Shown: piece by piece, positions 1-44,708 of the stretch
How positions within the stretch are numbered: position 1 is the first letter of the stretch
Layout of the letters: every line of letters begins with the position of its first letter
Source: a bacterium
Lineage (GTDB): Bacteria; UBA8248; JACPRG01; G963555815
Direction of reading: 5' to 3'
Assembly (NCBI GenBank): GCA_965261595.1
Contig: CBDHDG010000006.1
Span: 832,001 to 896,000, forward strand
Length of the DNA stretch: 64,000 nt
The notes under the pieces: generated by a model
Seen by the model: only the letters and a program-made list of their open reading frames with translations
Told to the model about the DNA's origin: nothing
Databases searched by the model: none
Made by a program: the position numbers and the translations under genes

Positions 1-32
1 CGCCCATTTGCTTGAGAGGAATTATGGGACCC
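1..32 (+). repeat. Copy 1 (truncated by the window edge) of a ~38-bp conserved site
   Basis: cgcccatttgcttgagaggaattatgggaccc matches 2787-2818 cgcccattcgcttaagaggaattatgggaccc with 2 mismatches. Confidence 0.85.
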
Positions 33-164
33 GTTGTGACCAATTTGTGACCACCCCTTCCTCTCAATGTGCCCTCATTCTCCCGTCAGCTTAAAAACCT
101 GCTAAAATTCCCATCGTCAACCCGAAAAGATACAGACCCGCCCACCTGATGGGGGCAACACGTC

Positions 165-2647
165 ATGCGGTACCGGCGCACCGTCCTGATTGCCGTTCTG
201 GCCTCAGTCCTTATTGCTCCCTCCCTGTTCGCCCAGACGCTGACGGTCAAGGTCCAACGGGGAAACGTGCGCTTCGGGCCTGGCAAGTCCTACCCCGTGA
301 TCGGAAGGGTCCAAAAAGCCGATAACTTCCCCATCGAGGCCCGCCAGGGCGACTGGTTCAAGATCCTGCTGGAGACGGGCCGGGAGGGCTGGGTCTTCAA
401 GTCTCTCGTCGAGGTCTCCGGTAAGCGGACGATTGGCGTCGTTCCTTTGGGTCCCACCCCATCGGCCTCCCGGCCTTACGGCGACTCCTGGGCCATCGTT
501 GTGGGTATCAACCGGTATCGAAAACCGGCCCTGCGCCTCCACTACGCCGTCAACGACGCCCGGAGCGTCACGGCCGCCCTTCAGAAGATCGGCTTTCCCA
601 AAAGAAACATCATCACCCTACTAGACGAGCGGGCCACGGCGCTGGCCATCCGCACGGCGTTCAACACCCTGATTACAAGGACACAGGGGCAAGACCGGGT
701 ATTCATCTTTGTCGCGGCGCACGGTTTGACGCTCGACCGTCCGGGGGGCGGGGCGATGGGATACCTGCTTCCGGTGGGGGCGGACCCGGCCAACATTGTG
801 GGGACGGCCATGCCGATGAGCGAGGTGAAGGACATGGCGTCGCTTCTCAAGGCGAAGCACGTCTTCTTTGCCGTGGACGCCTGCTTCTCAGGTCTTTTGG
901 CCGCACGGAGCGTGCCTCGGGCGGAAAAGCGGCGTGGACGCGGCTTACCTGACCCGGGGCCGTCTGCGGCAGATCCTCACGGCGGGCGAGCGGGACCAGC
1001 CGGTCCTGGAGGAAGGGGGCCACGGCCTTTTCACCCGGCGGCTCCTGGAGGCGATGGAGGGCGAGGCGGACAATTCTCCCCGGGACGGCGTCCTCACGGC
1101 GATGGAGGTGGCGGCGTTCGTCCAGGGGCAGGTGATCGCCTCGTCCAGCAGCCGTCAGACGCCCTTTTTCGGGACGATGGACGGCGTGGGGCAGTTCGTC
1201 TTCACCGCGCCGGCCATTGGAAATCGTCCGGCTGTTTCTCCGCCTCCGGCAACGCCCCGGCCTCCTGTCGCCTCCATCCCCATGGCTGACCCATTTGCTG
1301 GTCTCGGAAGGGTAGTTAAAGACCCCGATGAATTTGCGGGGTTGGGTAGGAAGGGCACGGGAGACCTGTTCTTGAATTCGAAGCCCCCTGGGGCGGTGGT
1401 CTTCTTGGATGGAAAGCGTCTTTCGGGTCCCACGCCACTCTTGGTCGAGAAGGTCCCCGCCGGTGAGCACCGAATATTGGTCCGCAAGGGCGAGAAGCAT
1501 GGCGGGTTCCGGGACGTTCGGCTCAAAGCGGGTGAGTTGAAGAACCTCACTGTGAGCCTGGAACGCCTGAAGGGTGAGCTTTACGTCAAGGTGCGTCCCT
1601 TCGGTTCGGCAGTTCTCGTGGACGGCAAGCGGTTGGGGAAGTCGCCGCTCAAGACAAAGGTGAACCCCGGTGAACGTCAGGTTGAAGTGAGACAGGAGGG
1701 CTACCGGAGGTACAGCGGCCGAGTGAAGGTCGAATTCGGGAAAACCACGGAAGTCTCGCAGACCCTCGCCGCGCTCGCCACGGCTACGCTGGTGGTTTCC
1801 TCGACGCCTTCGGGGGCGGAGATTTTCATTGGGAAAAAATCAGTGGGCAAGACGCCGCGGGCGATTCGGCTCTATGAGGGGGAATACACCGTTCGATTCA
1901 GGAAGCCGGGTTACAAGCCTTCAAGCCAGAAGGCCCTCGTTCGCGGGGACAGGAAGAGCACGGTTGTTGCCGTCCTGGCCGTTGACCCGATCCCTCCCGG
2001 GATGGTCAAGGTCCCTGCGGGTTGGTTCATCATGGGGAGCGGAAAGTACGAAAGTGAGAAGCCGCGCCGCCGGGTTTACCTGAATGAGTTTTTCATCGAC
2101 AAGTATCCGGTGACGAATGTCCGGTTCCGGAGGTTCGGAAAACCAAAGAAGGATCACGGCTCGAAGTTCAACGGCACCCGTCAGCCTGTGCGTGGGTGTG
2201 ACTTGGAGTCAGGCACGGGATTATTGCGGATCCGTGGGCAAGCGCTTGCCCACGGAGGCCGAATGGGAGAAAGCGGCTCGTGGGGTGGACGGCCGGAAGT
2301 ATCCCTGGGGGAATCAGTGGGACCCCTCGAAGGTGATTTGGGATAAGAACAGCGGCGATAAGACACACCCCGTGGATCGGACGTACAACACCCACCGGAG
2401 CCCTTATGGGGCTGTGGACATGTCGGGGAACGTGTGGGAGTGGGTGGGTGACTGGTTCAAGGCGGATTATTACCGGACCGCCCCGGATCGCAACCCGAAG
2501 GGACCTGCCTCCAGCAGCAGGCGCGTTTTGCGCGGCGGTTCCTGGAGCAGCGACAATACGTCGAACTTCCGCGCGGCGAATCGCAACGATTGGCCTCCGG
2601 ACAACCGGGGCAGCTGGGTTTCGTTTCGTTGCGCCAAGGCTCCATAA
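165..2647 (+). CDS. Secreted multidomain protein: signal peptide, SH3b, caspase-like peptidase C14, Pro linker, ~3 PEGA, FGE-sulfatase/CLec-fold domain. Split by two +1 frameshifts (~920, ~2191). Candidate DGR target
   Basis: ORFs 165-1289, 868-2346 and 2117-2647 join. SH3: [17 protein letters not shown]. Caspase dyad: FVAAHG / [88 protein letters not shown]. Confidence 0.85.
2522..2647 (+). repeat. DGR-like variable region VR1 (in-gene copy)
   Basis: Homologous to 9263-9389 and 9955-10078. Differences cluster in codon positions 1-2 of NNC/NNT codons between RGGSW and FRCAK. Confidence 0.7.
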
Positions 2648-2818
2648 TTACCCTTTGTCCTTTCGCCCTCTTACCCTTTGGGGGGTCCAGGGGGCTTGCC
2701 CCCTGGTTGGTTTAGCGATTAGCCCTTTTTCCCTCCGTTCATATCCTCAAACCCATAATGATCCGGCTCGCGACGCCGTGGGGACCCGCCCATTCGCTTA
2801 AGAGGAATTATGGGACCC
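2648..2818 (+). other. Conserved post-VR module: pyrimidine-rich tract, GC hairpin (2687-2706 ccagggggc-tt-gccccctgg), imperfect long hairpin/38-bp site
   Basis: Near-identical to the sequence after 9389 for ~95 bp, then similar through the 38-bp site ending at 9562. Confidence 0.75.
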
Positions 2819-3083
2819 AAAGTAGGTGTCTATTCAGGTGTCTTCTGAGGGTACACAAACCCACACACAGACACACAACCAGCACAAAGAGGTTTTCGCG
2901 GGAATCCAACAACAACGGGGATTTACGGGGGTTGGCCTGAGAATCCCGGAAGGCTTCTGACGGATTTAATGTGCGCCGCCTAGAGGAAGGGCTGCCAGGA
3001 TGAAAAGCCGCAGGTCTGCCGGTTCAAGCCGAAGCATCGAGCTAACAGCGAAGACTCAAGAATGACCCCGCCGCTTCTCCTCC

Positions 3084-3887
3084 TCAATCTATCAGGATCT
3101 GGCTGAGGAACAGCTTGGTGCGATCGTTCTGGGGGTTCTCGAAGAATCCATGGGGCTCGTTCTGCTCGATGATCTCGCCGCCGTCCATGAAGATGACACG
3201 GTCGGCGACGGTCTTGGCGAAGCCCATCTCATGGGTCACGACGAGCATGGTCATGCCGGTGCCGGCGAGTTCGATCATCACGTCCAGAACCTCCGTGATC
3301 ATCTCCGGATCCAAGGCCGAGGTCGGTTCGTCGAACAGCATGATCTTGGGCGACATGCAGAGCGCCCGCGCAATCACCACCCGCTGCTGCTGGCCGCCCG
3401 AAAGCTGGCCCGGGAACTTCTCTGCCTGTTCGGGTATCCGGACTCGCTCGAGATATTCCCGCGCCAATTCATTGGCCTCGGCCTTGGGCTTATTGCGCAC
3501 CCAGATCGGGCCCAATGTCAGATTCTCAAGCACCGTGAGATGGGAAAATAGATTGAAGTGCTGAAACACCATGCCGACTTCGCTGCGAATGGTGTGAATG
3601 TTCTTGAGATCGTTGGTGAGCTCGGTCCCGTCGACGAGGATCTGGCCCTGCTGGTGTTCTTCGAGCCGGTTTATGCAGCGGATCAGGGTGGACTTTCCAG
3701 ACCCCGACGGCCCGCAGATGACGATGCGCTCACCCTTATTGACGGTCAGGTTGATGTCCTTGAGCACATGGAAAGAACCGAACCATTTGTGGACACCCGT
3801 CATCTCGATCATGACGTCCTCGGAGACGGTCATGGTCTTGGTTGGGTGTTTGAGTCCGTCTTCCGATAAACCGGCTTTGTCATACAT
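3084..3887 (-). CDS. aapP: Amino-acid ABC transporter ATP-binding protein (AapP/BztD)
   Basis: [30 protein letters not shown]; operon context. Confidence 0.9.
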
Positions 3888-6547: not shown

Positions 6548-7956
6548 TGGACCGCCCCTGGGTTATTTATTGGACACTCGGGTGAGGGTATTCGACCTCA
6601 TGCGGCCTCCGCAACTTGAGCGAGTTTTTCCTGCCTTGCCTGGGCCAGCGTTCGGTAGCCGTAGCCCTCGAGAATCCAATGATGGTTGTACAGGTTCTTG
6701 AACTCAAGCAACGCCCACCGCAGTTCCTCTACGGTGGCGAAAGAGCGCACCCACAGGAGATTCTCCTTCAAGATGCGGATGAACCACTCACAGTAGCCAT
6801 TTCCCTCGGGCGCCCGCACGAAGCTGGGCGAACTGGTCATGCCCAGGTAGGCGATCTCCCGCTGAAAGTCATCGGACAGATAGGCGGGGCCGTGGTCGTG
6901 ACGAACTTTAAGCCCCTCGGCGACGTCCGCCTCCAAGCCGGCGAAGCGCTCGGCGACCCCCTGCCGGATCGGCTCCAGGGCCTCGAAGCGGTTGCCGCTC
7001 TTGGCCGCATGGATCCCCACGCAGTCCACCGAGCAGTGATCCACCGCCACGAACACCGAGGCCATCCCCTCCTCGGTGGTCACCGTCGTCGTCATGTGCG
7101 TGCCCCACATTCGGTCGGGCCGCTCGGTGCGGATGGTCCCGTTGTGGGCCTTGGGACCTCGGGGTTTGTCCACCCGGTGGGGGGCCTGAAGCCCCGCCTC
7201 CCGCATCAGGCGACGCACCCGCTCCTTGCTGGTGCGGATGCCCGCGAAGCGCAGCCTCGCCCACACCTTGCGGTAGCCCTCGCCATGGAAGGGAGAGTCC
7301 TCCAGGACCTGCCGGATGTGGCCGAGGAGTTCCGCATCGGTGCACGGGCCCACAGGGCCGCGCTTATTGGGCGTGGGGCGTCCATGAACGGGGACCGCCT
7401 CTCGCCGCCGTTGCGCGTAGACCGTGGAGCGCGCCAAGCCCCAAAGGGCGCACACCCGCTTCAGGCCGTAGGCTCTGCCCGTGGAGGTGAAGCGGGCCTG
7501 ACTCATCGCCTCCACCTCCTGCCGGCTAAAGGGCGGCCGGCCTCCAGGCGGTCGATCTTCTCCCGCAGGACCTCGCCCTCCATCGTGAGTTCGCCCACCT
7601 TGGCCTTGAGCCGGGCGTTCTCCTCGTCCCGCTCATCCGCCGGGCGGGCTTTGAGCGCCGCCTCGCCCCCGCGAAGGAACGCCTCGCGCCAGGCGGAAAG
7701 CCGAGCCGCTGTCGTGCCCAACTCGCGGCAGAGCGTCTCCAGGCTCTCGCCCCGCAAAAGACGCAGGACCGCCTCCCGCTTGCGCCTGGCAGGAGAACCG
7801 ACCCCGCTCACTGCGATGCCCTGGGGCCTTGGCTCCGTTCGCCCTGCGGGCGCCCTCCGCCAAAGCCCCCTCTTGCTTTTGTTCGTTCATCGCGACACCC
7901 CTTTCTCCATGAATCATGGATCAATCGAGTGTCCAACAAAACCCTAGAGCGGGGGA
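6548..7956 (-). mobile_element. IS3-family element copy 1 (orfA with a +1 frameshift; orfB 6598-7515), 4-bp TSD gatc, inserted between aapJ and aapQ
   Basis: Ends TCCCCCGCTCTAGGGTTTTGTTGGACAC / GTGTCCAA..CCCAGGGGCGGTCCA; gatc at 6544-6547 and 7957-7960; rve-type orfB (GYRKV, HDHG, PEGNG..E). Confidence 0.93.
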
Positions 7957-7977
7957 GATCAACAATCAGTCGGTCTT

Positions 7978-8997: not shown

Positions 8998-9226
8998 TGC
9001 TTGCCCTCCCAGTTTGTCGGTATGTGACTAAATATGTTCAGCCTCCAAGATCGGACAAAGATTCGCGCCTACACGAATCGCCTCAACGCCCTGATTCGGA
9101 TAATTACCCGAACGCAGCGGCCTCACGGTGCCCGGATCAGATTTAGATCTTACGCTTCTGAGTCGGACAGGGCAAGGGGTAATATATAGCACAGGCCAGG
9201 AGTGGATGCAAGTAGCTGTCTCGGCC

Positions 9227-9562
9227 GCCCGCAACCCGAAGGGCCCATCCTCGGGCACGTTCCGCGTGGTTCGTGGCGCCTCGTGGTTCTACGTCAGTCC
9301 GTCACTCTTCCGCGCGGCGTTCCGGATCTGGTACCCAACTGGGCTTCACGTATGGCAACGTGGGTTTTCGTTGCGCCAAGGCTCCTTAAATTACCCTTTG
9401 CCCTTTCGCCCTTTTACCCTTTGGGGGGTCCAGGGGGCTTGCCCCCTGGCGGGTTTAGCGATTAGCCCTTTTGTCCCTGCGTTCATAGGCCACGACCCAT
9501 AGATATAGATCGCACGATGCCAGGGGGTCCCGCCCCTTCGCCGTGGAGAAGATAGGGGACCC
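9227..9562 (+). pseudogene. Orphan 3' fragment of an FGE/CLec gene (VR2) with full post-VR module and degenerate 38-bp site
   Basis: After removing one extra C it reads ARNPKGPSSGTFRVVRGASWFYVSPSLFRAAFRIWYQLGFTYGNVGFRCAKAP*. Hairpin at 9430-9449. No upstream gene body. Confidence 0.8.
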
Positions 9563-9695
9563 ATGCTGTGCCTGTTTTCGTGCCTGTTGGCTAAGCATTA
9601 GGAGATATACCGAGATAGATCGGAGCGGCGGACAATCCCTTATGGTTATTGGGAAACCCTTGATTTTTCTATGGTTTCCGTGCCACCATTCTCTT

Positions 9696-9752
9696 GATTC
9701 AGGGTCTAGTGGGGGAAACCTCGTGGGAGTTCGAGTCTCCCCTTCGGCACCA
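9696..9752 (+). tRNA. 3' half of tRNA-Leu(CAG), truncated; att-site remnant
   Basis: gattcagggtctag (anticodon loop and 3' stem strand), long variable arm, gggagttcgagtctccc T-arm, ends ttcggcacca; no D-arm or 5' acceptor strand. Confidence 0.8.
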
Positions 9753-9903
9753 TAAAATTCAAGCGTTTACAGGATGGGCGCGTTGCTTGCTTTCGGGATA
9801 TTTCTTTTCGCGTCGCCTGCGCAACCCGCATATGCGAATCGAAACTGTGCGACTTCCAGCGAACTCCATTCAGCACTCGGGCAAGTTTCTTTGAACTATC
9901 CTT

Positions 9904-10117
9904 TACCAAAACGCGCCCGCCCGTAATCCAAAGGGACCTGCCTCGAGCAGCTGGCGCGTGGTTCGCGGCGGCTCGTGGGGCAACCCTCAATCCAACGGGC
10001 TTCCGCGCGGCGATCCGGAGCGGGAGCCGTCCGGGCGGCAGGTACGTCGACCTGGGTTTTCGTTGCGCCATGGCTCCTTCACCGGGGCCGAAACCCTGAC
10101 CTTAAATAACCCTTTGC
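9904..10117 (+). pseudogene. Second orphan FGE/CLec 3' fragment (VR3) with truncated downstream tract
   Basis: After removing one extra C it reads [58 protein letters not shown]. Followed by a ~24-bp insert, then aaataaccctttgcc. Confidence 0.75.
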
Positions 10118-10175
10118 CAATCCCGATAACCAACCTTCCCCGTCATTCTCGCAGATCCAAATGGGAGAAAATCAG

Positions 10176-11976
10176 ATGACAATCGAGAATCGAATCGCGG
10201 CGCTGGAGAAAAGGTGCAAAAGGCTGGGCAAGACCCTTGTGGGGGTAGGCACCCTGGCTCTTTTTGCCGTTGTCGCCGGTACGGCCGGGTGGACGGTGGC
10301 GTATACGGGCGCCATCAGCCCATCGAGCATCACGACGAGATTGATTATTCTAGAGGATTCAGCCGGAAAGACGCTCCCCCGCTCTAGGGTTTTGTTGGAC
10401 ACTCGATTGATCCATGATTCATGGAGAAAGGGGTGTCGCGATGAACGAACAAAAGCAAGAGGGGGCTTTGGCGGAGGGCGCCCGTAGGGCGAACGGAGCC
10501 AAGGCCCCAGGGCATCGCAGTGAGCGGGGTCGGTTCTCCTGCCAGCGCAAGCGGGAGGCGGTCCTGCGTCTTTTGCGGGGCGAGAGCCTGGAGACGCTCT
10601 GCCGCGAGTTGGGCACGACAGCGGCTCGGCTTTCCGCCTGGCGCGAGGCGTTCCTTCGCGGGGGCGAGGCGGCGCTCAAAGCCCGCCCGGCGGATGAGCG
10701 GGACGAGGAGAACGCCCGGCTCAAGGCCAAGGTGGGCGAACTCACGATGGAGGGCGAGGTCCTGCGGGAGAAGATCGACCGCCTGGAGGCCGGCCGCCCT
10801 TTAGCCGGCAGGAGGTGGAGGCGATGAGTCAGGCCCGCTTCACCTCCACGGGCAGAGCCTACGGCCTGAAGCGGGTGTGCGCCCTTTGGGGCTTGGCGCG
10901 CTCCACGGTCTACGCGCAACGGCGGCGAGAGGCGGTCCCCGTTCATGAACGCCCCACGCCCAATAAGCGCGGCCCTGTGGGCCCGTGCACCGATGCGGAA
11001 CTCCTCGGCCACATCCGGCAGGTCCTGGAGGACTCTCCCTTCCATGGCGAGGGCTACCGCAAGGTGTGGGCGAGGCTGCGCTTCGCGGGCATCCGCACCA
11101 GCAAGGAGCGGGTGCGTCGCCTGATGCGGGAGGCGGGGCTTCAGGCCCCCCACCGGGTGGGCAAACCCCGAGGTCCCAAGGCCCACAACGGGACCATCCG
11201 CACCGAGCGGCCCGACCGAATGTGGGGCACGCACATGACGACGACGGTGACCACCGAGGAGGGGATGGCCTCGGTGTTCGTGGCGGTGGATCACTGCTCG
11301 GTGGACTGCGTGGGGATCCATGCGGCCAAGAGCGGCAACCGCTTCGAGGCCCTGGAGCCGATCCGGCAGGGGGTCGCCGAGCGCTTCGCCGGCTTGGAGG
11401 CGGACGTCGCCGAGGGGCTTAAAGTTCGTCACGACCACGGCCCCGCCTATCTGTCCGATGACTTTCAGCGGGAGATCGCCTACCTGGGCATGACCAGTTC
11501 GCCCAGCTTCGTGCGGGCGCCCGAGGGAAATGGCTACTGTGAGTGGTTCATCCGCATCTTGAAGGAGAATCTCCTGTGGGTGCGCTCTTTCGCCACCGTA
11601 GAGGAACTGCGGTGGGCGCTGCTTGAGTTCAAGAACCTGTACAACCATCATTGGATTCTCGAGGGCTACGGCTACCGAACGCCGGCCCAGGCAAGGCAGG
11701 AAAAACTCGCTCAAGTTGCGGAGGCCGCATGAGGTCGAATACCCTCACCCGAGTGTCCAATAACCCAGGGGCGGTCCAACGCGGCTTAGGCTCCGTGGGT
11801 CAGATGGCACTGTCAGAGCATGTGATTCAGCTGGAAAGACGCGGCTTCAGCTCCATGGGCATGGTAGTATCAGAGCATACGACTCAGCCGGGAAGTGGCG
11901 GGTTAAGCTCTATGGGGAAACCGGAAAGATCTCTTTCAAAACTCTAAACGCCAGAGGAACGGTTTCTCATCCCTAA
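10176..11976 (+). pseudogene. Small membrane-anchored protein with three DSAGKxR repeats, interrupted by IS3 copy 2
   Basis: Removing the IS and one TSD restores the frame: ..LIILEDSAGKT|RLRLRGSDGTVRACDSAGKTRLQLHGHGSIRAYDSAGKWRVKLYGETG..HP*. Confidence 0.75.
10375..11778 (+). mobile_element. IS3-family element copy 2 (orfA ~10441-10827, orfB ~10824-11732), 4-bp TSD acgc
   Basis: Same ends as copy 1; acgc at 10371-10374 and 11779-11782; orfA/orfB overlap ATGA. Confidence 0.95.
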
Positions 11977-12471
11977 TTGTTAGGAGACCACTTCCATGCC
12001 AGCCGGGCAGGAAGGATCCCGCTCGGCGGTTCATGCATGGGTGTAGCTGTAGGGGGAAGGTTGCCCTTTTGTCCCTGCGTTCATCGGCTCGCAATCCATG
12101 TGTATCTGGCTCGCGCCATCAGCAGGACAACCTTCGTGAGTTCCATTTCCCCCAAAATCGAGGGTGCGGGTTGCATGGAAGATGCCCCCCCTACGTTTGC
12201 CCATTCGATTTCCCCGAATGCCCTGATGGTGGCCAATAATAATGTCAGGATTATCATCATTGGGTATCAGATAATAGGTAAGGAGTGGAGGAAACGGGGC
12301 CGAAACCCCCGAAAATGAGTGAATTGGGGCCTGGGATGGCCTTTTGGGCTGATTCTCGAGCGAGTGTGAGGGCCTAAAAACCTCTCCTGGCCCCCCTCTA
12401 GAAACCTCCATTTTCGTCTGTCATTACTGGCTATATCTTTGATTCTAATACGCGTGCGCGTGCGGGGGTAG

Positions 12472-13074: not shown

Positions 13075-13171
13075 GGAAGCGCATAGGGTCCCGGTGGCCC
13101 TCCTGGACTTCAAATCCAGTGTTCCGGCTTAACCCCCGGTAGGTGGGTTCGACTCCCACGCGCTTCCGCCA
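13075..13171 (+). tRNA. selC: tRNA-Sec (anticodon TCA)
   Basis: 8-bp acceptor stem GGAAGCGC/GCGCTTCC, ctgga-cttcaaa-tccag anticodon arm, long variable arm, gtgggttcgactcccac T-arm, GCCA end. Confidence 0.93.
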
Positions 13172-14524: not shown

Positions 14525-16221
14525 CCGGGATTTCCCAGATGACCACTCTTAGCCATCCTGCGGTCCTCCTGTGTCATCAAAGTACCCCATTTTACTACAG
14601 ATTCAGGGTCTCTTTGCAGAACCCTCTGCTCAATCGAGGGGCAACGGCCGTCCTAAAGCCGCAATCCCTTGAAAACCCAGCTCTACCGGCACACTCAGGG
14701 GAGTTCGGCACAGACTGATCCCCCGTCTCCACCACGTCACTAAGCTTCCGGGCCATCTGCTCCGTCATCCGGTATCTGGTACGGGAGGCGGTAACCACAA
14801 CCGTCGAATTCGTTCAAGGATTGCCCTGAACAGTTGACGCGGCACGGCCACCTCGGCCATCTGGAAGGTGGTGTGCCGGGCGTGGGTGACCACCTTGGCC
14901 CCAATCTTAATCAGCTTCTCGCGTAACGTCGTCAGCGACCAGTGCTTCACCGCTCTGGGCAACGCCAGCCGCCGCAGGAAGTTTGCCAGGTTGTACGCCA
15001 AGGCAAATAGTTGCAAGCGAACCTGGTTCTCTTCAAAGCCGTGGCAGGACAGGCGCGTCCAGTTCAGGGCGTACTTGCCCTCCTTGATCCACTGCTCCGC
15101 CGTCCCACGCTGGTTGTAGAACCTCACGACGTTCTCTTCCCGCCAGTGCAGGTTGGTCACGATGAAGCTGACTCTTGGAAACAACTCGCCCTGGTGCCAC
15201 TCGACCGCCACCACCACCCGGCGAGGCTTCTCCCAACTAGCCGCCTGATAGGGGAGACGCTGTGGTAGAAGATAATGGGCCTTTTGGGCGGTCGGCCAAC
15301 CGGCCGGGTCAGAAGGTATTCGATGTCCCTGTACAAGATGGCGTTGGCCGGAAGCCGAATCGCATAGGAGTAGCCCTCCGCCTCAAGGTATCGGTACACC
15401 TCCGGCTTGGCAAATGCCGCGTCGCCTCGAAAAAACCGACAGACCTTCGCATCCCGGTAGCGAGCTACCACCGGCTCCAATACAGACCACCAGTCATCAG
15501 CGCTGTGGACCTTGCCGTTGCGCAACAGCGCCCGCTCCAGATCGCCAAACTGGTTGAAGCAAAACAGTGGGTGATAGCAGGTGCAGCCGAAGTGGCCGTT
15601 GTAGGAAGAGCCTTCCTGCTCACCGTGGGTCGGGCTGACCGAACTGTCCATGTCCAGGATCAGCTTGCGAATCGGCTTGCGTTTGCGGACACGATCCACC
15701 AACACACCGGGCAGACCGCTCAGCGCCTTGAGGGGTTAAGGGGCCGGGTGAGGGTCTGCGTCTCGAATCGGCTCATCTGGCTGGTGGAGGCAGCGGTGTG
15801 ATACTTCGCTCGCCCCCCAACCACCTGACGCATGGCGGGATCGACACAGAGCCGCTCGGCATCATTGGTGTCTTTATATCCTGCCAGGCGGCTGTAGACC
15901 GACTGGCGCACCAAAGCGGTGAGGCTGTGCCGGGTGTTCCCGCCCGTCCGTGAATCGGACAGAAACCCCTCGGCCGCCTTCGTCAGCCCCAACACCTCAT
16001 CCAGTTCACGATAGGCAAGCAAACCGGCGTCACTCGTAACCTTTGCTCCGTGAAACTCCAGCCTGAGCCGACCGTCGAATTGGAGCCTCAACGGCCTCTT
16101 TTTCGCTTCACCCATTGGGTCCCCTCGCAAGATGATGGCAGGGAGAGGCCAACACCTTGATTTTACACGAGAAAACGGCCTTCGGGGCGTTAAAAATTAT
16201 CATCCATATGGGAAATGCGGG
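14525..16221 (-). mobile_element. IS1380-family element copy A, transposase frameshifted, 5-bp TSD cctat
   Basis: IRs CCCGCATTTCCCATATG / CCGGGATTTCCCAGATG; cctat at 14520-14524 and 16222-16226; TSDAGLL, LDMDSS, RGDAAF, RGTAEQWIKEGK. Confidence 0.92.
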
Positions 16222-21939: not shown

Positions 21940-22239
21940 ATCCCATTACCTCCCGCGATACACCGCACAGCGCCGCCCGGCCTTCGCGGCGGCGATCAAA
22001 CGCCATTTTCGGTCCGCGTGTCCTCATCATACCCCATCCGTTGAGCGTCGGAATTTGTTTCGCGATCCCCAAGAACGCCGCTCATCGCGTCTCCGGCGCT
22101 CACCTCGCCGCTCCGCCGCCCGTAACGGATGTTCGGTCGTCCTCCCCAGAAATGTTATAAACTCGCCGAGAGGGTGAAGGCATCATCCATTGAACACCAT
22201 CTTGAAAAATGTTCACGCCGCGTTGCGAGGGGGAGACGG

Positions 22240-23228
22240 ATGCGATTCGGGATAGGGTGCCCGCCAAAAGAGAGCGGCCAATCGGCGGAGGCCATCGCCC
22301 AAACGGTCCAGCGGGCGGAGGACTGCGGCTTCAATGAAGCGTGGGTGGGCGATTCCCAGGGAATCTGGCACGACCTCTACGTCTCCATTACGCTTTGCGC
22401 TGTCCGCACCCGGCGGATCCGGCTTGGGGTGGGCGTCACCAACCTCATCACGCGCCATCCCGCCGTCACGGCCCGGGCGATGGCCACGCTGGACGAGGTT
22501 TCCGGCGGCCGCGCGCTCCTGGGTTTCGGGGCCGGAGACACGGCGCTCAAGCACCTGGGGCTGAAACCCTCCTCCTTGAAAGACATGGAGGAAGGAATCC
22601 TCCTGATTCGCGGTCTGCTGGCCGGGAGGACGGACAGTATCAGGGGAACACAATCCCCCGATTCACGGGATTTCAACCAAGGAAGGTCCCCATTTACCTG
22701 GCTTGCTACGGGCCAAAAATGCTTGAGCTGGCCGGGAGAGTCACAGACGGCGTGAACGTCCCCACCGGGATTTCGCCCGAACTCATTCAATACGCGCTGG
22801 GCCGGATCGAAAGCGGCAGGCGCGCCGCCGGCCGGGACCCCGCCTCCGTCGCCGTCGCCTTCCAGGTGGGCTGCTCCATCCGGGAGGACGGGGATCGGGC
22901 GCGGGAGGATGTCAAATCGTGGGCGGCCCGCCGGGCGCTCTCGCCCATTCCGCTCTCCATCCTGGGGATCACCCGGGAAGAGGCCGAGGGGTTTCGGCAG
23001 GCGTACCGGATTTCCGATCACCTCGTCCCCCACGCCCCCCACAGCGCGGCCGTGCGCAAAGACTGGGCGGCCGGCCTTTCGCTGGCGGGGACGCCCGAGG
23101 AGTGCGTCGAGAAGCTCCACGCCCTCGATGAGCAGGGGATCGACCAGGTCATCCTCGTTCCCGCGACGCAGAATTCCGAAGAAATGTTGAAGACATTCGA
23201 GAAGCGAATTCTCCCGCATTTTGCTTGA
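22240..23228 (+). CDS. LLM-class (Mer-like) flavin/F420-dependent oxidoreductase, frameshift near 22640
   Basis: ORFs 22129-22755 and 22341-23228 join; GVTNLITRHPAVTA, SGGRALLGFGAGD, PIYLACYGPKML. Confidence 0.85.
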
Positions 23229-23278: not shown

Positions 23279-24694
23279 TTAAGACACCAAACTTCCCGTC
23301 CAGTCCGCGGGAATTTCTTCCGGTTCGGAAGTGACCCAATCCGACCAGATCCGCTCGACCTCGGCCATTGCTTCCTTCGGCACATCGCAAACCCGCGGGA
23401 GGCCCTTATTGTCGGGGCGCGTGGCGTCGATTCCCACTTTGGTGATGAGGTTGTGGGGGCGATCCCGGGAAGGATCGAGCTGGCCGGGCGCCCGGGTGAG
23501 GACGGTCCCGTCGCGATCAAACTGGGACCGGGTCGCGATGGCCCACTCCACATCGTCCATGTTGCGAATATCCACATCGTCGTCCACGACCACCGCGTAC
23601 TTGATGTTGATGCGGCTCGCGAGGATCGCGCTGAGGGCGAGTTTCCCATCTCCGGGTGACCGCTTCTTGATGGAGACGATCGCGTGGAACCGGCCGCAGC
23701 CGCCCGTTGTAAAGTGCACGTCCCGGACCTTGGGGACCACTTCCTTGACCAGGTTGTAAAGGTCCGTGCAAGCCGGAAGCGCCCGCATGAAAGCCCCCTC
23801 CGTGGGCGGTTTTCCGAGGTAGACGCTCTGGAAGATGGGGTCCCGTCGATGCGTGACGGCGTTGAACCGGATGACGGGCATACGGTTTTTCTCGGCCAGG
23901 GCGCCGTGATAATAGCCCGTGAACTCTCCGAAAGGTCCTTCGTCCTCCCGCACACCCGGCGGAATGACCCCTTCCAGGACGATCTCCGCATCGGCCGGAA
24001 CTTGCAGATTCACGGCCTCGCATTTTACGAGGTCGATTGGCTTCCCCCGAAGCGCCCCGGCCAGCTCGTATTCGTCGACGTGGATGCTTCGTGTGATCTG
24101 GGAAGCGATATGAAGGGCGGGATCGCACCCGATAACCACCACAATCTCCAAAGGCTCGCCCCTTTCCTCGGCCTTCTCATGGTAGGTCTTCAAATGGACG
24201 ACCGGGTTGTAGAAAATGCCGGTTTCGTCCCGGCCCCGAAGCTGAAGGCGTTGAAGGGAGAGATTCGGGCCGAGCTCCGGGTCGTCAACGATGATGATCC
24301 CCGCCGTGATGTAGCGGCCTCCATCAAGCTCGTTGACCGTGGGGATCGGAAACGTTCGAAGGTCGAGCTCCTCTCCTTTCAGGATGACTTCCTTCACCGG
24401 CCCATCCGAAACCGATTTCGGGGCCAGGGGCCGCTGAATCCTTCGTTGATATTCCTCGATCAGGTCAACCGCGGGTTTGCCGAACATCATCTCCAACTAC
24501 CGATAACTTCCCAGGACGTTGGCGACCAGGGGGATATCCGACCCTTTCACGTTCCGGCAAAAGACGGTCTTTCCCCCCGCTCTTTTGATCAGCGCGGAGA
24601 TTTGATGATCCGGATCGACCTCCTCCCGGACGTATGCCAACTCACCAGCACGCCTCACGCAGTCCAAAAATCCCCGGAAGCCTTCGTACATCAT
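23279..24694 (-). CDS. UbiD-family decarboxylase with an in-frame TAG at 24497-24499 (possible pseudogene)
   Basis: DGGRYITAG, VPADAEIVLEG, EGPFGEFTGYY, VDDDVDI..VEWAIATR, KVGIDAT; the two ORFs abut in the same frame. Confidence 0.85.
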
Positions 24695-24798
24695 CCCCTT
24701 ACCCTCCTTCGAGAGAGTTCATCAACGCGGAAAAACAACGCGTCGCGTTCACGAAAGCCCGGAATCTTAAATCGGCTGCCCTTTGCGAGAAATCGGGA

Positions 24799-25494: not shown

Positions 25495-25760
25495 TCCGGC
25501 ATCCCTTTTCTCAAATCAAGCCGCTCCTGATTTCTTTCCCCGCTTGGTTCATGTTAACTGAATCCCGGGAAACCGGCGAACTCTCCGTCAAGCCTTCCCC
25601 CACGGGGGCCCGGAGGATATGTTCCATGAGGACCGGAAACCCGCGAGGATGTTAAAGTAGCGTCCCGCGCCGGGTTTTACAGTCAAGAAGAATTGGGCCG
25701 CCCTCCTCCGGAGATCGACGCCGGACGGGAAAATTTCAGCGGCGGCGGAGAACGCGAAAG

Positions 25761-27840
25761 ATGAGCTACCGAATCGGAATCGACGTCGGAGGTACGTTCA
25801 CCGATTTCCTGATCATGGACGATCAGGGCCGGGCGGAGGCCTTCAAGACCCCTTCCGTCCCGGATGACCCGGCCGAAGGCGTGTTCAACGGGTTCGAGGA
25901 AGCCGCGGCCTCGAAGGACCTGTCGGTTCCGGATTTTTTGGAGCGGACCGAGCTGATCATCCACGGAACCACCGTCACCACAAACGCCCTGTTGACCCAT
26001 TCGGGCGCCAAGGTCGGCCTCATCACAACGGAAGGGTTCCGCGATTCGCTGGAAATGCGGCGCGGCGTCAAGGAGCGGCTCTACGACATGCATTGCAGCC
26101 CCCCCCCCGCCCCTGGTTCCCCGGTCTTTGCGAATCGGGGTCCCGGAGAGGACGAACGCCCAGGGGGAAGCCGTCCTCGCGCCGCGCCGCGATAGCGTCC
26201 TTCGCGCCGTGAAGGACCTCCGCGCGGCCGGCGTCGAGGCCGTGGCGGTGAGCCTGCTGTTCTCGTTCCTGAACCCGGCGCATGAGGAAGCCATCCGCGC
26301 GCTCATCAAGCGGAAGTGGCCCGAAGTCTACCTGTCCGTCTCTTCCGAGACCCTGCCGGTGGTCCGTGAGTACGAGCGGACGAGCACGATCGTCCTCAAC
26401 GCGTACGTCGGCCCCATCCTCACCCGGTATCTCGAGCGGTTGGAAACAAGGCTCGCCGAATGCCGGTTCGGCGGCGTCCTGCTGATCATGCAATCCAACG
26501 GCGGGGTCGCGAGCCCTGAGGCGGCCCGGAAGTTTTCCGCGGGCACCCTGCTGTCCGGTCCCGCGGCGGCCCCGGCGACGGGACTGTTCTACGGGCGTCC
26601 GCATGAGACCGAGAACCTGATCACCCTGGACATGGGCGGAACGAGCTGCGACATCTGCGTCGTCAAGGACGGAGACCCGCGGGTGACGACGGAGGGACAG
26701 CTCGGCGGATACCGGATCGCCTCGCCGATCATCGACATCCACACCCTCGGCGCCGGCGGCGGGAGCATCGCCTGGATCGATGACGGGGGAATGCTTCAGG
26801 TGGGACCGAGAAGCGCCGGCGCGAGACCGGGGCCGATCTGCTACGGCCGGGGGGGCGATGAGCCCACGGTCGTCGACGTGAACCTGCTGCTCGGCTACCT
26901 GAACCCGGGGTTCTTTCTCGGCGGAAGGATCCCGCTGGACGTCGCCCGGCCCGAAACGATCCTCCGGGAACGAATCGCCGGCCCGCTGGGCCTGGACGTC
27001 CTGGAAGCCGCCATCGGAATCTCGAAGGTGGTCAACGCCAACATGACGGACGGACTGCGGGCCGTTACGATCGAGCGGGGGGACGATCCGCGGGAGTTCA
27101 CGCTGGTCGTCGCCGGCGGGGCGGGGCCCATTCACGCCTGCGCCATCGCGCGGGAGCTGGAAATCCCCTCCGTTTTGATCCCCCGGAGCTCTTCGGTCTT
27201 CTGCGCGGCGGGGATGCTGATCTCCGACCTCCGGCATCACTTCGTTACGACGTATCGGGCGAGCGCCGGCCGGTTGAACCTGGCCGCGGTCCGGGAGCGC
27301 TTCGAGAACATGGCGGTCAGGGGACGGGCGCTGTTGGCGTCGGAGGGGGTGAAAGAGGAAAACCGGACCTTGGCCTGCTCCGTGGACGCGCGCTACCTGG
27401 GCCAGCCCCACGAGGTGAACGTGGGCATCGAATGGGAAGAGCTGAGGCGAGAAGACTTGTCGCCGGTCTTCGAGCGTTTTCACGCGCGCCACGACGACCT
27501 GTTCGGCTACAGCGAGCCGGAGGAGACGGTGGAGTTCGTCAATCTACGGCTTGTGGCCGTCGGCCTCACGCAAACACCCCGAATGTCCGAGCCGCCCCCG
27601 GCGGCCGATTCCGCCGAATCGGCCCTCAAAGAACACCGGGACGTGTGTTTCCCCGCTTCCGGCGGATGGGTGCGGACCCCCGTCTACGACGGCCACCGCC
27701 TGGCGCGCGGCCACCGGGTCGAAGGAGGGGCCGTCATCGAGCGGCGGAACACGACCATCGTCGTCGAGCCGGGGTGGGAGCTCGCCTGCGACCCGCGCGG
27801 AAATTACGTCCTCACGCCCAACGGGGGAGAACATCCGTGA
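25761..27840 (+). CDS. Hydantoinase/5-oxoprolinase subunit A, frameshift at poly-C ~26100
   Basis: GIDVGGTFTD, HGTTVTTNA, SGPAAA, DMGGTS, GAGGGSIA. Confidence 0.88.
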
Positions 27841-32620: not shown

Positions 32621-34315
32621 CCCGCATTTCCCATATGGATGATAATTTTTAACGCCCAGAAGGCCGTTTTCTCGTGTAAAATCAAGGTGTTGGCCTCTCC
32701 CTGCCATCATCTTGCGAGGGGACCCGATGGGTGAAGCGAAAAAGAGGCCGTTGAGGCTCCAATTCGACGGTCGGCTCAGGCTGGAGTTTCACGGAGCAAA
32801 GGTTACGAGTGACGCCGGTTTGCTTGCCTATCGTGAACTGGATGAGGTGTTGGGGCTGACGAAGGCGGCCGAGGGGTTTCTGTCCGATTCACGGACGGGC
32901 GGGAACACCCGGCACAGCCTCACCGCTTTGGTGCGCCAGTCGGTCTACAGCCGCCTGGCAGGATATAAAGACACCAATGATGCCGAGCGGCTCTGTGTCG
33001 ATCCCGCCATGCGTCAGGTGGTTGGGGGGCGAGCGAAGTATCACACCGCTGCCTCCACCAGCCAGATGAGCCGATTCGAGACGCAGACCCTCACCCGGCC
33101 CCTTAACCCCTCAAGGCGCTGAGCGGTCTGCCCGGTGTGTTGGTGGATCGTGTCCGCAAACGCAAGCCGATTCGCAAGCTGATCCTGGACATGGACAGTT
33201 CGGTCAGCCCGACCCACGGTGAGCAGGAAGGCTCTTCCTACAACGGCCACTTCGGCTGCACCTGCTATCACCCACTGTTTTGCTTCAACCAGTTTGGCGA
33301 TCTGGAGCGGGCGCTGTTGCGCAACGGCAAGGTCCACAGCGCTGATGACTGGTGGTCTGTATTGGAGCCGGTGGTAGCTCGCTACCGGGATGCGAAGGTC
33401 TGTCGGTTTTTTCGAGGCGACGCGGCATTTGCCAAGCCGGAGGTGTACCGATACCTTGAGGCGGAGGGCTACTCCTATGCGATTCGGCTTCCGGCCAACG
33501 CCATCTTGTACAGGGACATCGAATGCCTTCTGACCCGGCCGGTTGGCCGACCGCCCAAAAGGCCCATTATCTTCTACCACAGCGTCTCCTATCAGGCGGC
33601 TAGTTGGGAGAAGCCTCGCCGGGTGGTGGTGGCGGTCGAGTGGCACCAGGGCGAGTTGTTTCCAAGAGTCAGCTTCATCGTGACCAACCTGCACTGGCGG
33701 GAAGAGAACGTCGTGAGGTTCTACAACCAGCGTGGGACGGCGGAGCAGTGGATCAAGGAGGGCAAGTACGCCCTGAACTGGACGCGCCTGTCCTGCCACG
33801 GCTTTGAAGAGAACCAGGTTCGCTTGCAACTATTTGCCTTGGCGTACAACCTGGCAAACTTCCTGCGGCGGCTGGCGTTGCCCAGAGCGGTGAAGCACTG
33901 GTCGCTGACGACGTTACGCGAGAAGCTGATTAAGATTGGGGCCAAGGTGGTCACCCACGCCCGGCACACCACCTTCCAGATGGCCGAGGTGGCCGTGCCG
34001 CGTCAACTGTTCAGGGCAATCCTTGAACGAATTCGACGGTTGTGGTTACCGCCTCCCGTACCAGATACCGGATGACGGAGCAGATGGCCCGGAAGCTTAG
34101 TGACGTGGTGGAGACGGGGGATCAGTCTGTGCCGAACTCCCCTGAGTCTGCCGGTAGAGCTGGGTTTTCAAGGGATTGCGGCTTTAGGACGGCCGTTGCC
34201 CCTCGATTGAGCAGATGGTTCTGCAAAGAGACCCTGAATCTGTAGTAAAATGGGGTACTTTGATGACACAGGAGGACCGCAGGATGGCTAAGAGTGGTCA
34301 TCTGGGAAATCCCGG
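32621..34315 (+). mobile_element. IS1380-family element copy B (ORFs 32728-33122 and 33137-34075)
   Basis: Near-identical to copy A with the same IRs. Confidence 0.92.
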
Positions 34316-34924: not shown

Positions 34925-35893
34925 CCTACATCTGGCCCTCCGGCGTGCATCCCTACTGCGGGTATTCTACCCGCTTGAGAGAAGTGGCCAAGCACGGGGT
35001 TTCGGAAAGCCGATTCCAGGGCGTATTCGACAAGATTCACACCTGCGGCTATTACCCGGTCTGGCTGGACGGCTACAACGTCGGCGGCAAAACCTTCTTT
35101 AACCTGATTTTCCGGCGCGCCAACGCCCGTTGGCAGGCGCGAATCAATATGACCGGCGCCCGGTATCAAAAAGAATTCAAAAAATGGACAAGGAGCGGGT
35201 ATCGGCCTATCCACGTCGACAGCTATCTGCGCAAAGGCAAAATCAGGTACGCCGCCTTATGGAAAAAGTCCAAGGGCTTCAAGTACACCGCCTATCACGG
35301 GAAAACCGCGAATTCGCATCAGAAGAGCTTCGAAAAACTCACCCGCCGCGGGTATGCGCCGGTCAATGTTTCCAGCGTGGTCGTCCAGGGCCGAAGGGGG
35401 GTCACCGCTCTATATGAGAAGAAGAACGTCGGCGGCTTCCACCTCAAAAGCGAAATGACGCTGAAGCAGTACAACGCTTTCTTCAAACAATACAATAAGC
35501 GGGGTTTCAAGCTGGTTTACCTGAATGGGTTTAACCGAGGGAGCAAACCCCGACTCAGCGGCATCTGGTACAAAAAGGTCCCCTACTCGTCCTACTGGGC
35601 GAAGCACTACCTCAATCGAGCCGGTTACCAAAGGGAATATAATTCCCACACAAAGCGCGGCTATCTCACGCGCGTTGTGACCGGCTACCAGCACCGGGGG
35701 CATCGACTCGAAGGCATCTGGTATAAGGGAGGGACGCTCAGGCAAGCCGCTCATCGTGACGGGGAAACCTTGAGGCGGTCAACCCAAGGGATGGAATCCA
35801 GCCGGGCTTGAACTCGCGCGGCGCGATTCCTCGCTACGCCCGGAATGACACGAACAGCGGTTCCACCAAGCCCGAAAATCGCATTTCAGCGAT

Positions 35894-39826: not shown

Positions 39827-41517
39827 AAACACCCTTTCTTGAAATCTTGTGGAGATACGAGGCCGATCCCCCGGGCCCGATAAACCGCTTCCCCCTCATC
39901 GACTTCAGTTGTCCAGTCTTAGGATCGAAGCTAATGGACCGGTGCTCCGTTGTCAAGCAGATGTAGACGGATGAGGGATCAGATGATGAAATTCGGCGGC
40001 GTCAAGGTGAAGGTCCCTTTAAAGGTAAAGGTCCCTTTAAGGGAAGAGTCCCCCGCTCTAGGGTTTTGTTGGACACTCGATTGATCCATGATTCATGGAG
40101 AAAGGGGTGTCGCGATGAACGAACAAAAGCAAGAGGGGGCTTTGGCGGAGGGCGCCCGTAGGGCGAACGGAGCCAAGGCCCCAGGGCATCGCAGTGAGCG
40201 GGGTCGGTTCTCCTGCCAGCGCAAGCGGGAGGCGGTCCTGCGTCTTTTGCGGGGCGAGAGCCTGGAGACGCTCTGCCGCGAGTTGGGCACGACAGCGGCT
40301 CGGCTTTCCGCCTGGCGCGAGGCGTTCCTTCGCGGGGGCGAGGCGGCGCTCAAAGCCCGCCCGGCGGATGAGCGGGACGAGGAGAACGCCCGGCTCAAGG
40401 CCAAGGTGGGCGAACTCACGATGGAGGGCGAGGTCCTGCGGGAGAAGATCGACCGCCTGGAGGCCGGCCGCCCTTTAGCCGGCAGGAGGTGGAGGCGATG
40501 AGTCAGGCCCGCTTCACCTCCACGGGCAGAGCCTACGGCCTGAAGCGGGTGTGCGCCCTTTGGGGCTTGGCGCGCTCCACGGTCTACGCGCAACGGCGGC
40601 AAGAGGCGGTCCCCGTTCATGAACGCCCCACGCCCAATAAGCGCGGCCCTGTGGGCCCGTGCACCGATGCGGAACTCCTCGGCCACATCCGGCAGGTCCT
40701 GGAGGACTCTCCCTTCCATGGCGAGGGCTACCGCAAGGTGTGGGCGAGGCTGCGCTTCGCGGGCATCCGCACCAGCAAGGAGCGGGTGCGTCGCCTGATG
40801 CGGGAGGCGGGGCTTCAGGCCCCCCACCGGGTGGGCAAACCCCGAGGTCCCAAGGCCCACAACGGGACCATCCGCACCGAGCGGCCCGACCGAATGTGGG
40901 GCACGCACATGACGACGACGGTGACCACCGATGAGGGGATGGCCTCGGTGTTCGTGGCGGTGGATCACTGCTCGGTGGACTGCGTGGGGATCCATGCGGC
41001 CAAGAGCGGCAACCGCTTCGAGGCCCTGGAGCCGATCCGGCAGGGGGTCGCCGAGCGCTTCGCCGGCTTGGAGGCGGACGTCGCCGAGGGGCTTAAAGTT
41101 CGTCATGACCACGGCCCCGCCTATCTGTCCGATGACTTTCAGCGGGAGATCGCCTACCTGGGCATGACCAGTTCGCCCAGCTTCGTGCGGGCGCCCGAGG
41201 GAAATGGCTACTGTGAGTGGTTCATCCGCATCTTGAAGGAGAATCTCCTGTGGGTGCGCTCTTTCGCCACCGTAGAGGAACTGCGGTGGGCGCTGCTTGA
41301 GTTCAAGAACCCGTGATTATGCCCTTGACGCAGTAAGACACAAGATATGGTGGTCCCTCGAAAATTGAATCCGACCCACTACATGTGGTATATGGAACTT
41401 CAAAGGGTGGAAGCCCCGAGGGAACCCCGGGGCGTTGCTACAAGAGAGGACCTCACAGACCCTCCTTGTAGCAAATCCCCAAGCCCGTGTCAACCTCGAT
41501 TTTCTGGGGGTCTGCCC

Positions 41518-41868: not shown

Positions 41869-41961
41869 GTGGAAAATAAGATTTACAAGTGCAGCGCCAG
41901 GGGATCCCGCCCCTGGCGCTGCGGTTCCATCACCACCCAACCTTGAAGGAGGACTGGGGCA

Positions 41962-42249: not shown

Positions 42250-42318
42250 GTGCCACGGCTGGGGTATACGGCCCCAGCCGTGGCGTTCCATTAACCCGCA
42301 GCTTGGAGAGCCCAGGCA

Positions 42319-44613: not shown

Positions 44614-44708
44614 CGGCGCTCATCGTCGTAACCCGGCATCTTTTGGTTTGACCCGATCGACGAAGGATTGATTTTGGCATCCGACTTCCCCCCTCGCGAG
44701 GTTTCCGG

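Follow-up and report, generated by a model that had tools for sequence, protein, structure and literature searches.

Among the proteins targeted by diversity-generating retroelements (DGRs), those with a C-type-lectin domain of the FGE-sulfatase type (category 'b') constitute the largest target category, accounting for 71/372, and some of them carry protease-related domains, according to the excerpted text of PMC5758913. In cyanobacteria, orthocaspase-lectin variable proteins, remote variable proteins and transposases nearby have been described in the consulted portion of PMC7517822. Leftover DGR targets without a reverse transcriptase (RT) or a template have been reported from T. denticola isolates (PMC4891356) and from Nostoc, where all3226 is the example (PMC7517822), and in the excerpts of these two papers the authors interpret them as what remains when the core DGR has been lost. 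Fusions of metacaspase and FGE-sulfatase domains were catalogued in 2012, with 33 sequences and FGE-sulfatase as the fifth most widespread partner domain (excerpt of PMC3501461). The subject here is a gene with resemblances to all of these, located at the beginning of a 64,000-nucleotide stretch of bacterial DNA (contig CBDHDG010000006.1 of assembly GCA_965261595.1), which as a whole is termed the window. The gene ends in a variable region, VR1, and the locus is read here, with moderate confidence, as a DGR target of known type that has been pseudogenised and is now a leftover, or remote at most; its variable regions would have been shaped by DGR-type hypermutation.

The variable region and its orphan copies

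VR1 lies at the 3' end of the gene, where two variable stretches alternate with an invariant 12-mer and an invariant 20-nt tail (Table 1). The sequence-only reading had pointed to two homologues of this gene end in the window, and the homology is real, the last ~160 bp being found again at 9230-9389 and 9922-10098. In blastn with 2440-2800 as the query, the matches are 9366-9541 (84.8%, E=1e-49), 9903-10077 (71%, E=1e-18) and 9230-9319 (70%, E=1e-5). The homologues (here called copy 2 and copy 3) are not genes, however, but 5'-truncated fragments whose variable regions contain a 1-nt indel each. Both are promoterless and without an upstream gene, and in both the homology begins 57-76 nt before the variable stretch, the two starts, at gene coordinates 2470 and 2489, being no more than ~20 nt apart. 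The coding part of copy 2 is 70% identical to the gene and copy 3 has the coding part only. The two are found ~6.7 kb from the gene, in a stretch rich in insertion sequences (IS), between two inverted IS3-family copies.

The 12-mer TTCCGCGCGGCG occurs exactly three times, at 2567, 9308 and 10001, and TTTCGTTGCGCC also exactly three times, at 2624, 9366 and 10058. Both are free of adenine, and they are collinear and 45-46 nt apart in all three copies, so that the scaffold invariance described earlier holds to the letter for both 12-mers. The codon triplets listed for the positions between them are likewise right once the 1-nt insertion in copy 3 is allowed for. Regarding chance, none of 100 shuffles reaches the 4 matches observed for the second 12-mer at no more than one mismatch. 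For the first 12-mer alone, 5 matches are reached by 8/100 shuffles, and one 12-mer is therefore weak evidence by itself. The repeat pattern that is observed is real and well above chance. Between the invariant elements, VR1 has no variable segment in common with copy 2 or copy 3.

A template for VR1-type regions must hold both 12-mers, and their pattern could therefore be used to scan genomes. When the two were sought 40-52 nt apart in 185,579 representative genomes, among which the source genome evidently does not figure, three loci were found (L001, L002 and L003), all in one metagenome-assembled genome (MAG), CAYRGS01, the nearest available genome. L001 and L002 were compared with VR1, copy 2 and copy 3 as a set of five DNA copies, to which the codon counts that follow refer. 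Immediately before the variable region, 16/19 codons vary at the third position, and positions 1 and 2 vary at 10/38 sites, a codon pattern of old, ordinary divergence under protein constraint. In the scaffold (12-mer plus 20-nt tail), third positions vary in 0/10 codons (Fisher p=1.4e-5 against the upstream part), and the invariant codons include the non-preferred TTT and CGT. Within the variable stretches, positions 1 and 2 vary at 38/44 sites and position 3 at 15/22. The A sites of one copy mismatch the others in 50-68% of cases in the variable part, as opposed to 26-32% for non-A sites, while in the upstream part, taken as a control for adenine bias, the corresponding values are 21-34% and 19-27%. 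Third-position invariance in an A-free scaffold, beside saturated synonymous divergence upstream, provides a usable test for past DGR action where no template is at hand.

The family was also compared at the protein level, in a set of 78 out of 187 proteins fetched, chosen for having both sequence motifs and at least 80 framework residues, which gave 3003 pairs. At a framework identity of 80-90%, the variable-region identity is below 0.6 in 153/157 pairs, with a median of 0.36, approximately the level that arises from the fixed scaffold residues alone. Identical variable regions occur in only 5 pairs of the whole set. Near-baseline identity of the variable regions in proteins with such similar frameworks points to cassette-like replacement and not to gradual drift.

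An annotated DGR on a Prosthecochloris aestuarii plasmid served as control; it came from a tblastn search of the FGE-sulfatase piece against plasmids, which returned 427 records, all below 60% identity. The order in this control is target, HRDC, Avd, RT, template repeat (TR) and second target. Its variable regions stand at the same place in the fold as VR1 and have the same layout, the mismatches read in the template alignment all fall at template adenines, and its two targets share ~100 nt after the stop. Layout, codon statistics and the match to an annotated DGR target together bear out the earlier assignment of the C-terminus as a DGR-type variable region of the FGE/C-type-lectin kind. Past DGR-type rewriting is likely the best account of the variable regions.

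Conservation extends beyond the stop codon, where an 84-nt block including a hairpin is 95% identical to 9389-9472 of copy 2, even though the coding part upstream of it is only 70% identical. The only other match to this block in the window is weak and covers 53 nt (12063-12115; blastn). The GC hairpin reported earlier at 2687-2706 is indeed there, with a stem of 8 bp instead of 9, of which 7 are G-C pairs, and with a 4-nt loop, CTTG. In VR1 it begins 39 nt past the stop codon, and in L003 the distance is shorter. The hairpins of phage DGRs have a stem of 7-10 bp and a 4-nt GRNA loop and are 4-34 bp away, in the portion of PMC3240598 that was available. An Rfam search of 1-3100 and 9000-10400, with E up to 1, detected nothing relevant.

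Reading frames and domains of the gene

The sequence-only reading had described a single gene, 165..2730, in which an intact exported caspase is coupled to the variable domain. Its coding part, 165-2647, lies in three frames, as is apparent both from the open reading frame (ORF) list, with 165..1289, 868..2346 and 2117..2647 in three different frames, and from tblastn with two related proteins, P0001 and P0002. For the intact relative P0002 (814 aa, ~63-72% identity), frame 3 is matched at 177-929, frame 1 at 880-2283 and frame 2 at 2189-2641, the last of these corresponding to residues 662-812 of P0002. In the near-identical P0001, residues 1-256 correspond to 165-932 in frame 3 (99.6%), after which the alignment continues in frame 1. 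By comparison with intact relatives, each break has been traced to one additional C, located near 933 for the first and near 2191 for the second. The first is absent from P0001 and the second is common to it, P0001 ending in the same out-of-frame tail as the frame-1 ORF of the window.

The domain content claimed earlier, namely SH3, caspase, PEGA and FGE/C-type lectin, has all been found by Pfam. SH3_3 (1.1e-10) and Peptidase_C14 (1.8e-11; 44.6 bits, for a cut-off of 21.4) are matched by the ORF 165..1289, PEGA in 3 stretches (5e-40) and positions 3-57 of the FGE-sulfatase profile by the ORF 868..2346, and FGE-sulfatase (5.1e-38) by the ORF 2117..2647, over profile positions 94-255 of 255 and up to 2 residues before the stop. 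The N-terminus appears to be a signal peptide, as read by eye from the translation. The caspase motifs A-A-H-G (His at ~720) and D-A-C-F-S-G (Cys at ~882) are present, and the His/Cys dyad thus stands as far as its two residues are concerned. Both are located 5' of frameshift 1, however, which cuts the Peptidase_C14 domain ~50 nt after the Cys codon and leaves the remainder to be read in another frame. With the frame broken twice and the second break recurring in P0001, the intact exported caspase is not supported by the visible sequence. The PADLOC and NCBIfam matches are limited to one generic model for caspases and to FGE-family models that fall far short of cut-off, and the nearest named database homologues come from Nitrospinota and Rokubacteria MAGs.

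In the PDB, the best matches of the third-frame piece are formylglycine-generating enzymes (FGEs; 1.8e-24) and the Treponema variable protein TvpA (2y3c; 9.3e-15). When the FGE chains 6muj and 2q17 are aligned to it, both Cys residues of the motif L-C-H-D-S-Y-C, which we take to be the catalytic pair of the enzyme, stand opposite a Ser and a Thr in the first variable stretch of VR1. A true FGE enzyme was considered and set aside, as the cysteine pair of the enzyme is missing from VR1 and the NCBIfam equivalogs all fall far below cut-off.

At the other end of the gene, a leader of ~100 nt and the start of the signal peptide are shared with the short FGE-only paralogue at L002 (9080-9218; 86.7%) and likewise with a truncated 5' gene scrap of L003 (9743-9846, minus strand; 79%), after the orthologue of copy 2. 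This sharing suggests a common promoter or leader and a modular reshuffling of the family. Across the loci it would indicate that family members have been repeatedly duplicated, truncated and recombined.

It is doubtful that the gene is intact in the organism and that both frameshifts are errors of assembly or base-calling, in which case the reading as a DGR target, active or leftover, would still stand. Elsewhere in the window, lesions split or interrupt at least six further genes (luciferase-like, PanE, EamA, hydantoinase A, UbiD and transposases), which amounts to roughly one per 7 kb and may reflect either real gene decay or assembly indels. Three single-base insertions moreover share a context on the plus strand, with a C before GTGG at ~933 and ~2191 and before CTGG at ~7785, in IS3-family copy A (Table 1); the cause may be either a hotspot of mutation or an error made systematically in base-calling. 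Both observations, together with the absence of frameshift 1 from the near-identical P0001, are in keeping with an intact gene. It is harder to reconcile with errors that frameshift 2 recurs in P0001 with the same out-of-frame tail, that the C-terminal piece has been called as a separate 120-aa protein in P0071, and that neither break is within a homopolymer. The lesion in UbiD is a substitution to an in-frame TAG and not an indel, and the IS copies differ by ordinary substitutions, as would be the case in a genome truly accumulating lesions. The evidence leans towards real decay, at least for the second break.

Template, reverse transcriptase and stasis

No RT family was found in the 117 ORFs of at least 150 aa in the window, nor in 104 further stop-to-stop frames of at least 70 aa outside recognised genes. 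Searches by tblastn with the RT, Avd and HRDC of the control gave a best E of 0.15 in the window and of 0.012 in L001, where the match is inside a porphobilinogen deaminase gene. The earlier statement that there is no local RT holds for these 64 kb, and on one side of the gene only, as 164 nt are visible upstream of it. RT families are also absent within 10 kb of L001, L002 and L003. No further template-like copy was detected in the window by blastn at word size 7, and blastn of 2440-2730 against plasmids and phages gave no match. A protein search with the last 59 residues, aimed at short fragments or template-encoded ORFs, yielded 1 candidate only, which is uninformative. DGR reports from Rokubacteria, Methylomirabilis, Nitrospinae, Nitrospinota or NC10 are absent among the literature matches listed, which weakly suggests that DGRs have not been described from the lineage.

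The copies at hand were also considered as templates of one another. Usually, more than 80% of the mismatches between TR and variable region are required to fall on template adenines; when each of the five copies is treated in turn as the 'template' of the others, giving 20 ordered pairs, the share peaks at 0.39. Copy 3 was considered in particular, as it lacks a hairpin and a template need not be in frame, but it was rejected, being not A-rich (13% A) and having only 20-25% of the mismatches at its adenines.

These results bear on the active remote target that had been proposed earlier, for which an RT, an accessory gene and a TR, situated elsewhere or just upstream, would still rewrite VR1, and perhaps the orphan copies, in trans. 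Such activity is not supported by the visible sequence, where neither a TR nor an RT has been found and no copy templates another, and it is considered unlikely. All sequence signatures of a leftover target would apply to an active one equally, and VR1 is the most A-rich of the copies (19% A in its variable part), with several Asn codons, as would be expected of a variable region that has been mutated only lightly. The consulted parts of PMC5758913 and PMC7517822 document targets separated from the RT by tens of kb or more. In addition, a target is recognised through the 3' end of its variable region and the hairpin downstream, with no need for upstream gene sequence, according to the excerpt of PMC3240598 on the Bordetella phage system, and only 164 nt of the upstream neighbourhood are in view. 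An active system is nonetheless difficult to reconcile with a gene that is broken twice, with a CTTG loop that misfits the phage consensus and with the MAG CAYRGS01 (incomplete), in which the scaffold pattern occurs only at three gene ends or scraps.

The stasis of the variable regions, which has been assessed in two comparisons, also weighs against an active target. P0071, the 120-aa C-terminal piece from another record, differs by 1 residue outside the variable region and by 0 inside VR1. Between copy 2 and its orthologue in L003, the variable part is identical at 100/103 nt, with flanks at 95.7-97.9%, and the scrambled codons of the first stretch are all unchanged. Copy 2 should still be targetable, because it has kept both scaffold and hairpin. 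The ongoing diversification implied by the earlier proposal finds no support in these observations, and a spent system is favoured because stasis is found in both comparisons and two frameshifts are present.

In pilS, vls and tprK, donor cassettes feed an expressed locus by gene conversion. It has been considered whether copies 2 and 3 are silent donors of this type for the expressed variable region, without any RT, which appears extremely improbable. Both are promoterless and 5'-truncated with nearly coincident starts, both have conserved anchors around the variable stretches, and copy 2 keeps the post-stop block as well and is retained in the related genome, all of which would suit donor cassettes. 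VR1, however, shares no variable segment with either of them and is invariant between records, both copies carry frameshifts, and copy 3 is absent from L003. Furthermore, fixed third positions fit adenine mutagenesis of AAY codons and not a shuffling of segments. That the copies are something other than debris, either RT-free donor cassettes or scars of a recombination between TR and variable region that deleted the intervening DGR, is very unlikely. If true, either case would represent DGR turnover or RT-free variation by a route that was not found described in the portions of the literature consulted.

Several points weigh against the interpretation as a leftover DGR target. The bias towards positions 1 and 2 inside the variable stretches is not significant alone (p=0.10), and 19/61 columns without A in any of the five copies still vary. 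Some differences are thus of a non-adenine type, which could be due to several templates, to later drift or to there being no DGR. Adenine-specific mutagenesis is something we infer and have not shown, because no TR was found. The hairpin loop, CTTG, is not GRNA on either strand and the distance is 39 nt, although the consensus is derived from phages and may not hold for cellular DGRs; with its tail TTGGTTTAGC, the hairpin also passes a simple terminator-like scan. The stasis rests on one near-identical record (1 aa difference) and one relic, a sample that is small and covers little time. It is also conceivable that an RT is encoded upstream of position 1 or at some other place in the genome, and the frameshifts could be assembly errors, given the lesion density and the shared G-C-GTGG context.

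The varying A-free columns, the terminator-like hairpin and the missing TR and RT would also be compatible with a locus in which no retroelement was ever involved. In that case, ordinary FGE-sulfatase paralogues would have surface loops that diverge fast under diversifying selection, scaffolds held by the fold and a hairpin that is a terminator. The scaffold residues (R-G-G-S, aromatic-R-x-A-x-R, P-D and G-F-R-C-A) are also present in true formylglycine-generating enzymes, and for this reason the conservation of the scaffold at the protein level is uninformative. An origin of this kind is distinctly unlikely, nevertheless. Protein constraint fails to explain why synonymous change is 0/10 in the scaffold but 16/19 upstream, and it leaves unexplained both the baseline variable-region identity at 80-90% framework identity alongside five pairs that stay identical and the 95% match of the non-coding sequence that follows the stop. 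Regarding the terminator, the hairpin of copy 2 and of L003 has no T run after it.

Neighbouring elements, proposed mechanism and known systems

The coordinates of the gene, the copies and the surrounding features are collected in Table 1.

Table 1. Positions, strand and content of the features discussed, in the window and at the related loci
Feature	Positions	Strand	Content
5' leader and signal peptide start	60..201	+	Conserved at nucleotide level
First reading frame	165..932	+	Signal-peptide-like N-terminus, SH3_3, p20 part of Peptidase_C14; His ~720, Cys ~882
Frameshift 1	933	+	Extra C, context aagcgg-c-gtggac; position good to 1-2 nt
Second reading frame	934..2190	+	Remaining caspase domain, linker, three PEGA, N-part of FGE-sulfatase (C-type-lectin-like)
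Frameshift 2	2191	+	Extra C, context cctgtg-c-gtgggt
Third reading frame	2192..2647	+	C-part of FGE-sulfatase, variable region; stop codon 2645-2647
VR1	2546..2643	+	Variable 2546-2566, invariant 12-mer 2567-2578, variable 2579-2623, invariant tail 2624-2643
Conserved non-coding block after stop	2646..2729	+	Pyrimidine-rich spacer and GC hairpin 2687-2706
Copy 2	9230..9472	+	Orphan 5'-truncated variable-region fragment; 1-nt insertion in second variable stretch; hairpin 9430-9449
Copy 3	9903..10098	+	Orphan 5'-truncated variable-region fragment; 1-nt insertion in first variable stretch; no hairpin
L001			Gene end at contig edge; MAG CAYRGS01
L002			Intact 340-aa signal-plus-FGE gene; MAG CAYRGS01
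L003			Orthologue of copy 2; MAG CAYRGS01
IS3-family copy A	6567..7957	-	orfA frameshifted by 1-nt insertion
IS3-family copy B	10374..11763	+	Inserted into small gene uninterrupted in L003
IS3-family third copy	40049-41314 and 42627-42760	+	Interrupted by 1312-bp insert 41315-42626
Luciferase-like monooxygenase	22129-23228		In two frames
UbiD	23279-24718		In-frame TAG at 24497-24499
Hydantoinase A	25656-27840		N-terminal part in another frame, beside C9 run at 26100
EamA transporter	43671-45641		In several frames
PanE	58027-59306		In two frames

Copies 2 and 3, together with a solute-binding-protein gene, are flanked by the inverted pair of IS3-family copies A and B, with 5 substitutions and a single 1-nt indel between A and B; the three IS3 copies of the window differ by 4-5 substitutions each. 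The 1312-bp insert in the third copy holds an ORF of 420-430 aa on the minus strand, with no match in Pfam, NCBIfam or PADLOC. An element with a DDE_Tnp_1_4 transposase is present in two copies that are 99.6% identical (14525-16221, minus strand; 32621-34315, plus strand); the N-terminal part is in a different frame in both, and one has an extra 2-nt insertion. The small gene entered by IS3 copy B encodes 173 aa with a hydrophobic stretch and without a family match; it is intact in L003 (8539-9060, minus strand) and split in the window (10161-10373 and 11764-12100). Just after IS3 copy B, at ~11780-11910 on the plus strand, about 3 tandem imperfect repeats of ~45-50 nt each are discernible by eye. 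Between copies 2 and 3, a stretch at ~9690-9752 (plus strand) resembles, also by eye, the 3' half of a tRNA with T-arm, acceptor end and CCA; it is reported neither by ARAGORN nor by Rfam (E up to 1), and could be a remnant of an integration site. A tRNA-Sec gene has been detected at 13075-13171 on the plus strand (ARAGORN; Rfam RF01852, 72.1 bits), which means that the organism probably uses selenocysteine. Further away, at 34945-35811 on the plus strand, a protein with five BTRD1 repeats (a polyglycine-hydrolase-like structural repeat; 5.9e-55) is encoded beside M28 and M23 peptidase genes.

Regarding mechanism, the family combines a predicted signal peptide, SH3, a caspase-type protease, three PEGA spacers and a C-terminal C-type-lectin-like FGE-sulfatase domain without the cysteine pair. 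Judging from domain content, its members are predicted to be secreted or periplasmic; an intact relative, for example P0002, would be exported, with SH3 and PEGA keeping it at the envelope, and its C-terminal lectin-like surface may capture a variable ligand on behalf of the caspase-type protease tethered to it. In the gene and in the two orphan 3' fragments, the final ~100 bp of the domain would have been shaped by DGR-type templated hypermutation, in which template-repeat RNA would be reverse-transcribed with errors at adenines and the resulting cDNA would replace the variable region. This replacement may be anchored at the invariant 3' scaffold and is probably aided by the post-stop block and the GC hairpin. 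Such mutagenic retrohoming of the binding surface, proposed from nucleotide statistics and from the analogy with the plasmid control, would retarget the binding of the protease. At this locus the system appears to be spent, with the gene split by two 1-nt insertions, the other copies reduced to scraps, no template or RT in view and the variable regions unchanged.

If this account of a leftover target is true, the locus constitutes one more decayed, RT-less DGR target, from an uncultured lineage. A caspase-type protease, apparently exported, on one chain with a hypervariable lectin domain suggests ligand-retargeted proteolysis outside the cytoplasm. Three stages of decay are found side by side, which would make the locus helpful in studying the retirement of DGR targets. 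Publications already cover caspase-lectin targets, remote targets and RT-less leftovers, and the locus opens no new question.

When compared to the metacaspase fusions of PMC3501461, the same combination of caspase and FGE-sulfatase is found here. The excerpted text of that study reads the FGE domain as an enzyme, whereas here the region of the cysteine pair is a variable stretch, and SH3 and PEGA have 0 occurrences each in PMC3501461. With the FGE-type DGR targets, namely TvpA, category 'b' of PMC5758913 and the P. aestuarii plasmid DGR, the locus shares a variable region at the extreme C-terminus of an FGE-sulfatase domain. The plasmid DGR also has the same alternation of scaffold and variable codons and a non-coding block after the stop that is conserved between targets. 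Unlike the variable proteins of FGE-type DGRs, the gene is frameshifted and no cognate TR, RT or accessory gene has been found with it, and the SH3-caspase-PEGA arrangement with an export signal was not found among the architectures described in the consulted portions of the literature.

The orthocaspase-lectin proteins of cyanobacteria, as portrayed in the excerpts of PMC7517822, are similar in combining a caspase-type peptidase with a C-terminal C-type-lectin variable domain and in having transposases near, and their remote paralogues are dispersed far from any RT, as is the case here. Those remote targets were assigned by an identity of at least 50% to a template of the same genome, whereas no template is available for this locus, and the cyanobacterial examples in those excerpts are mostly predicted to be cytosolic, in contrast to the signal-peptide-like N-terminus and the PEGA spacers observed here. 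The closest likeness in terms of fate is with the leftovers of T. denticola and with Nostoc all3226, which in the excerpts of PMC4891356 and PMC7517822 also keep the variable-region signature while the machinery is absent. For those leftovers, the mismatches were seen to lie at adenines by comparison with a template, present in sister strains or in the same genome, and none from any relative has been recovered here; by contrast, the gene and two more copies have here decayed physically. The locus is probably a decayed member of this known kind.

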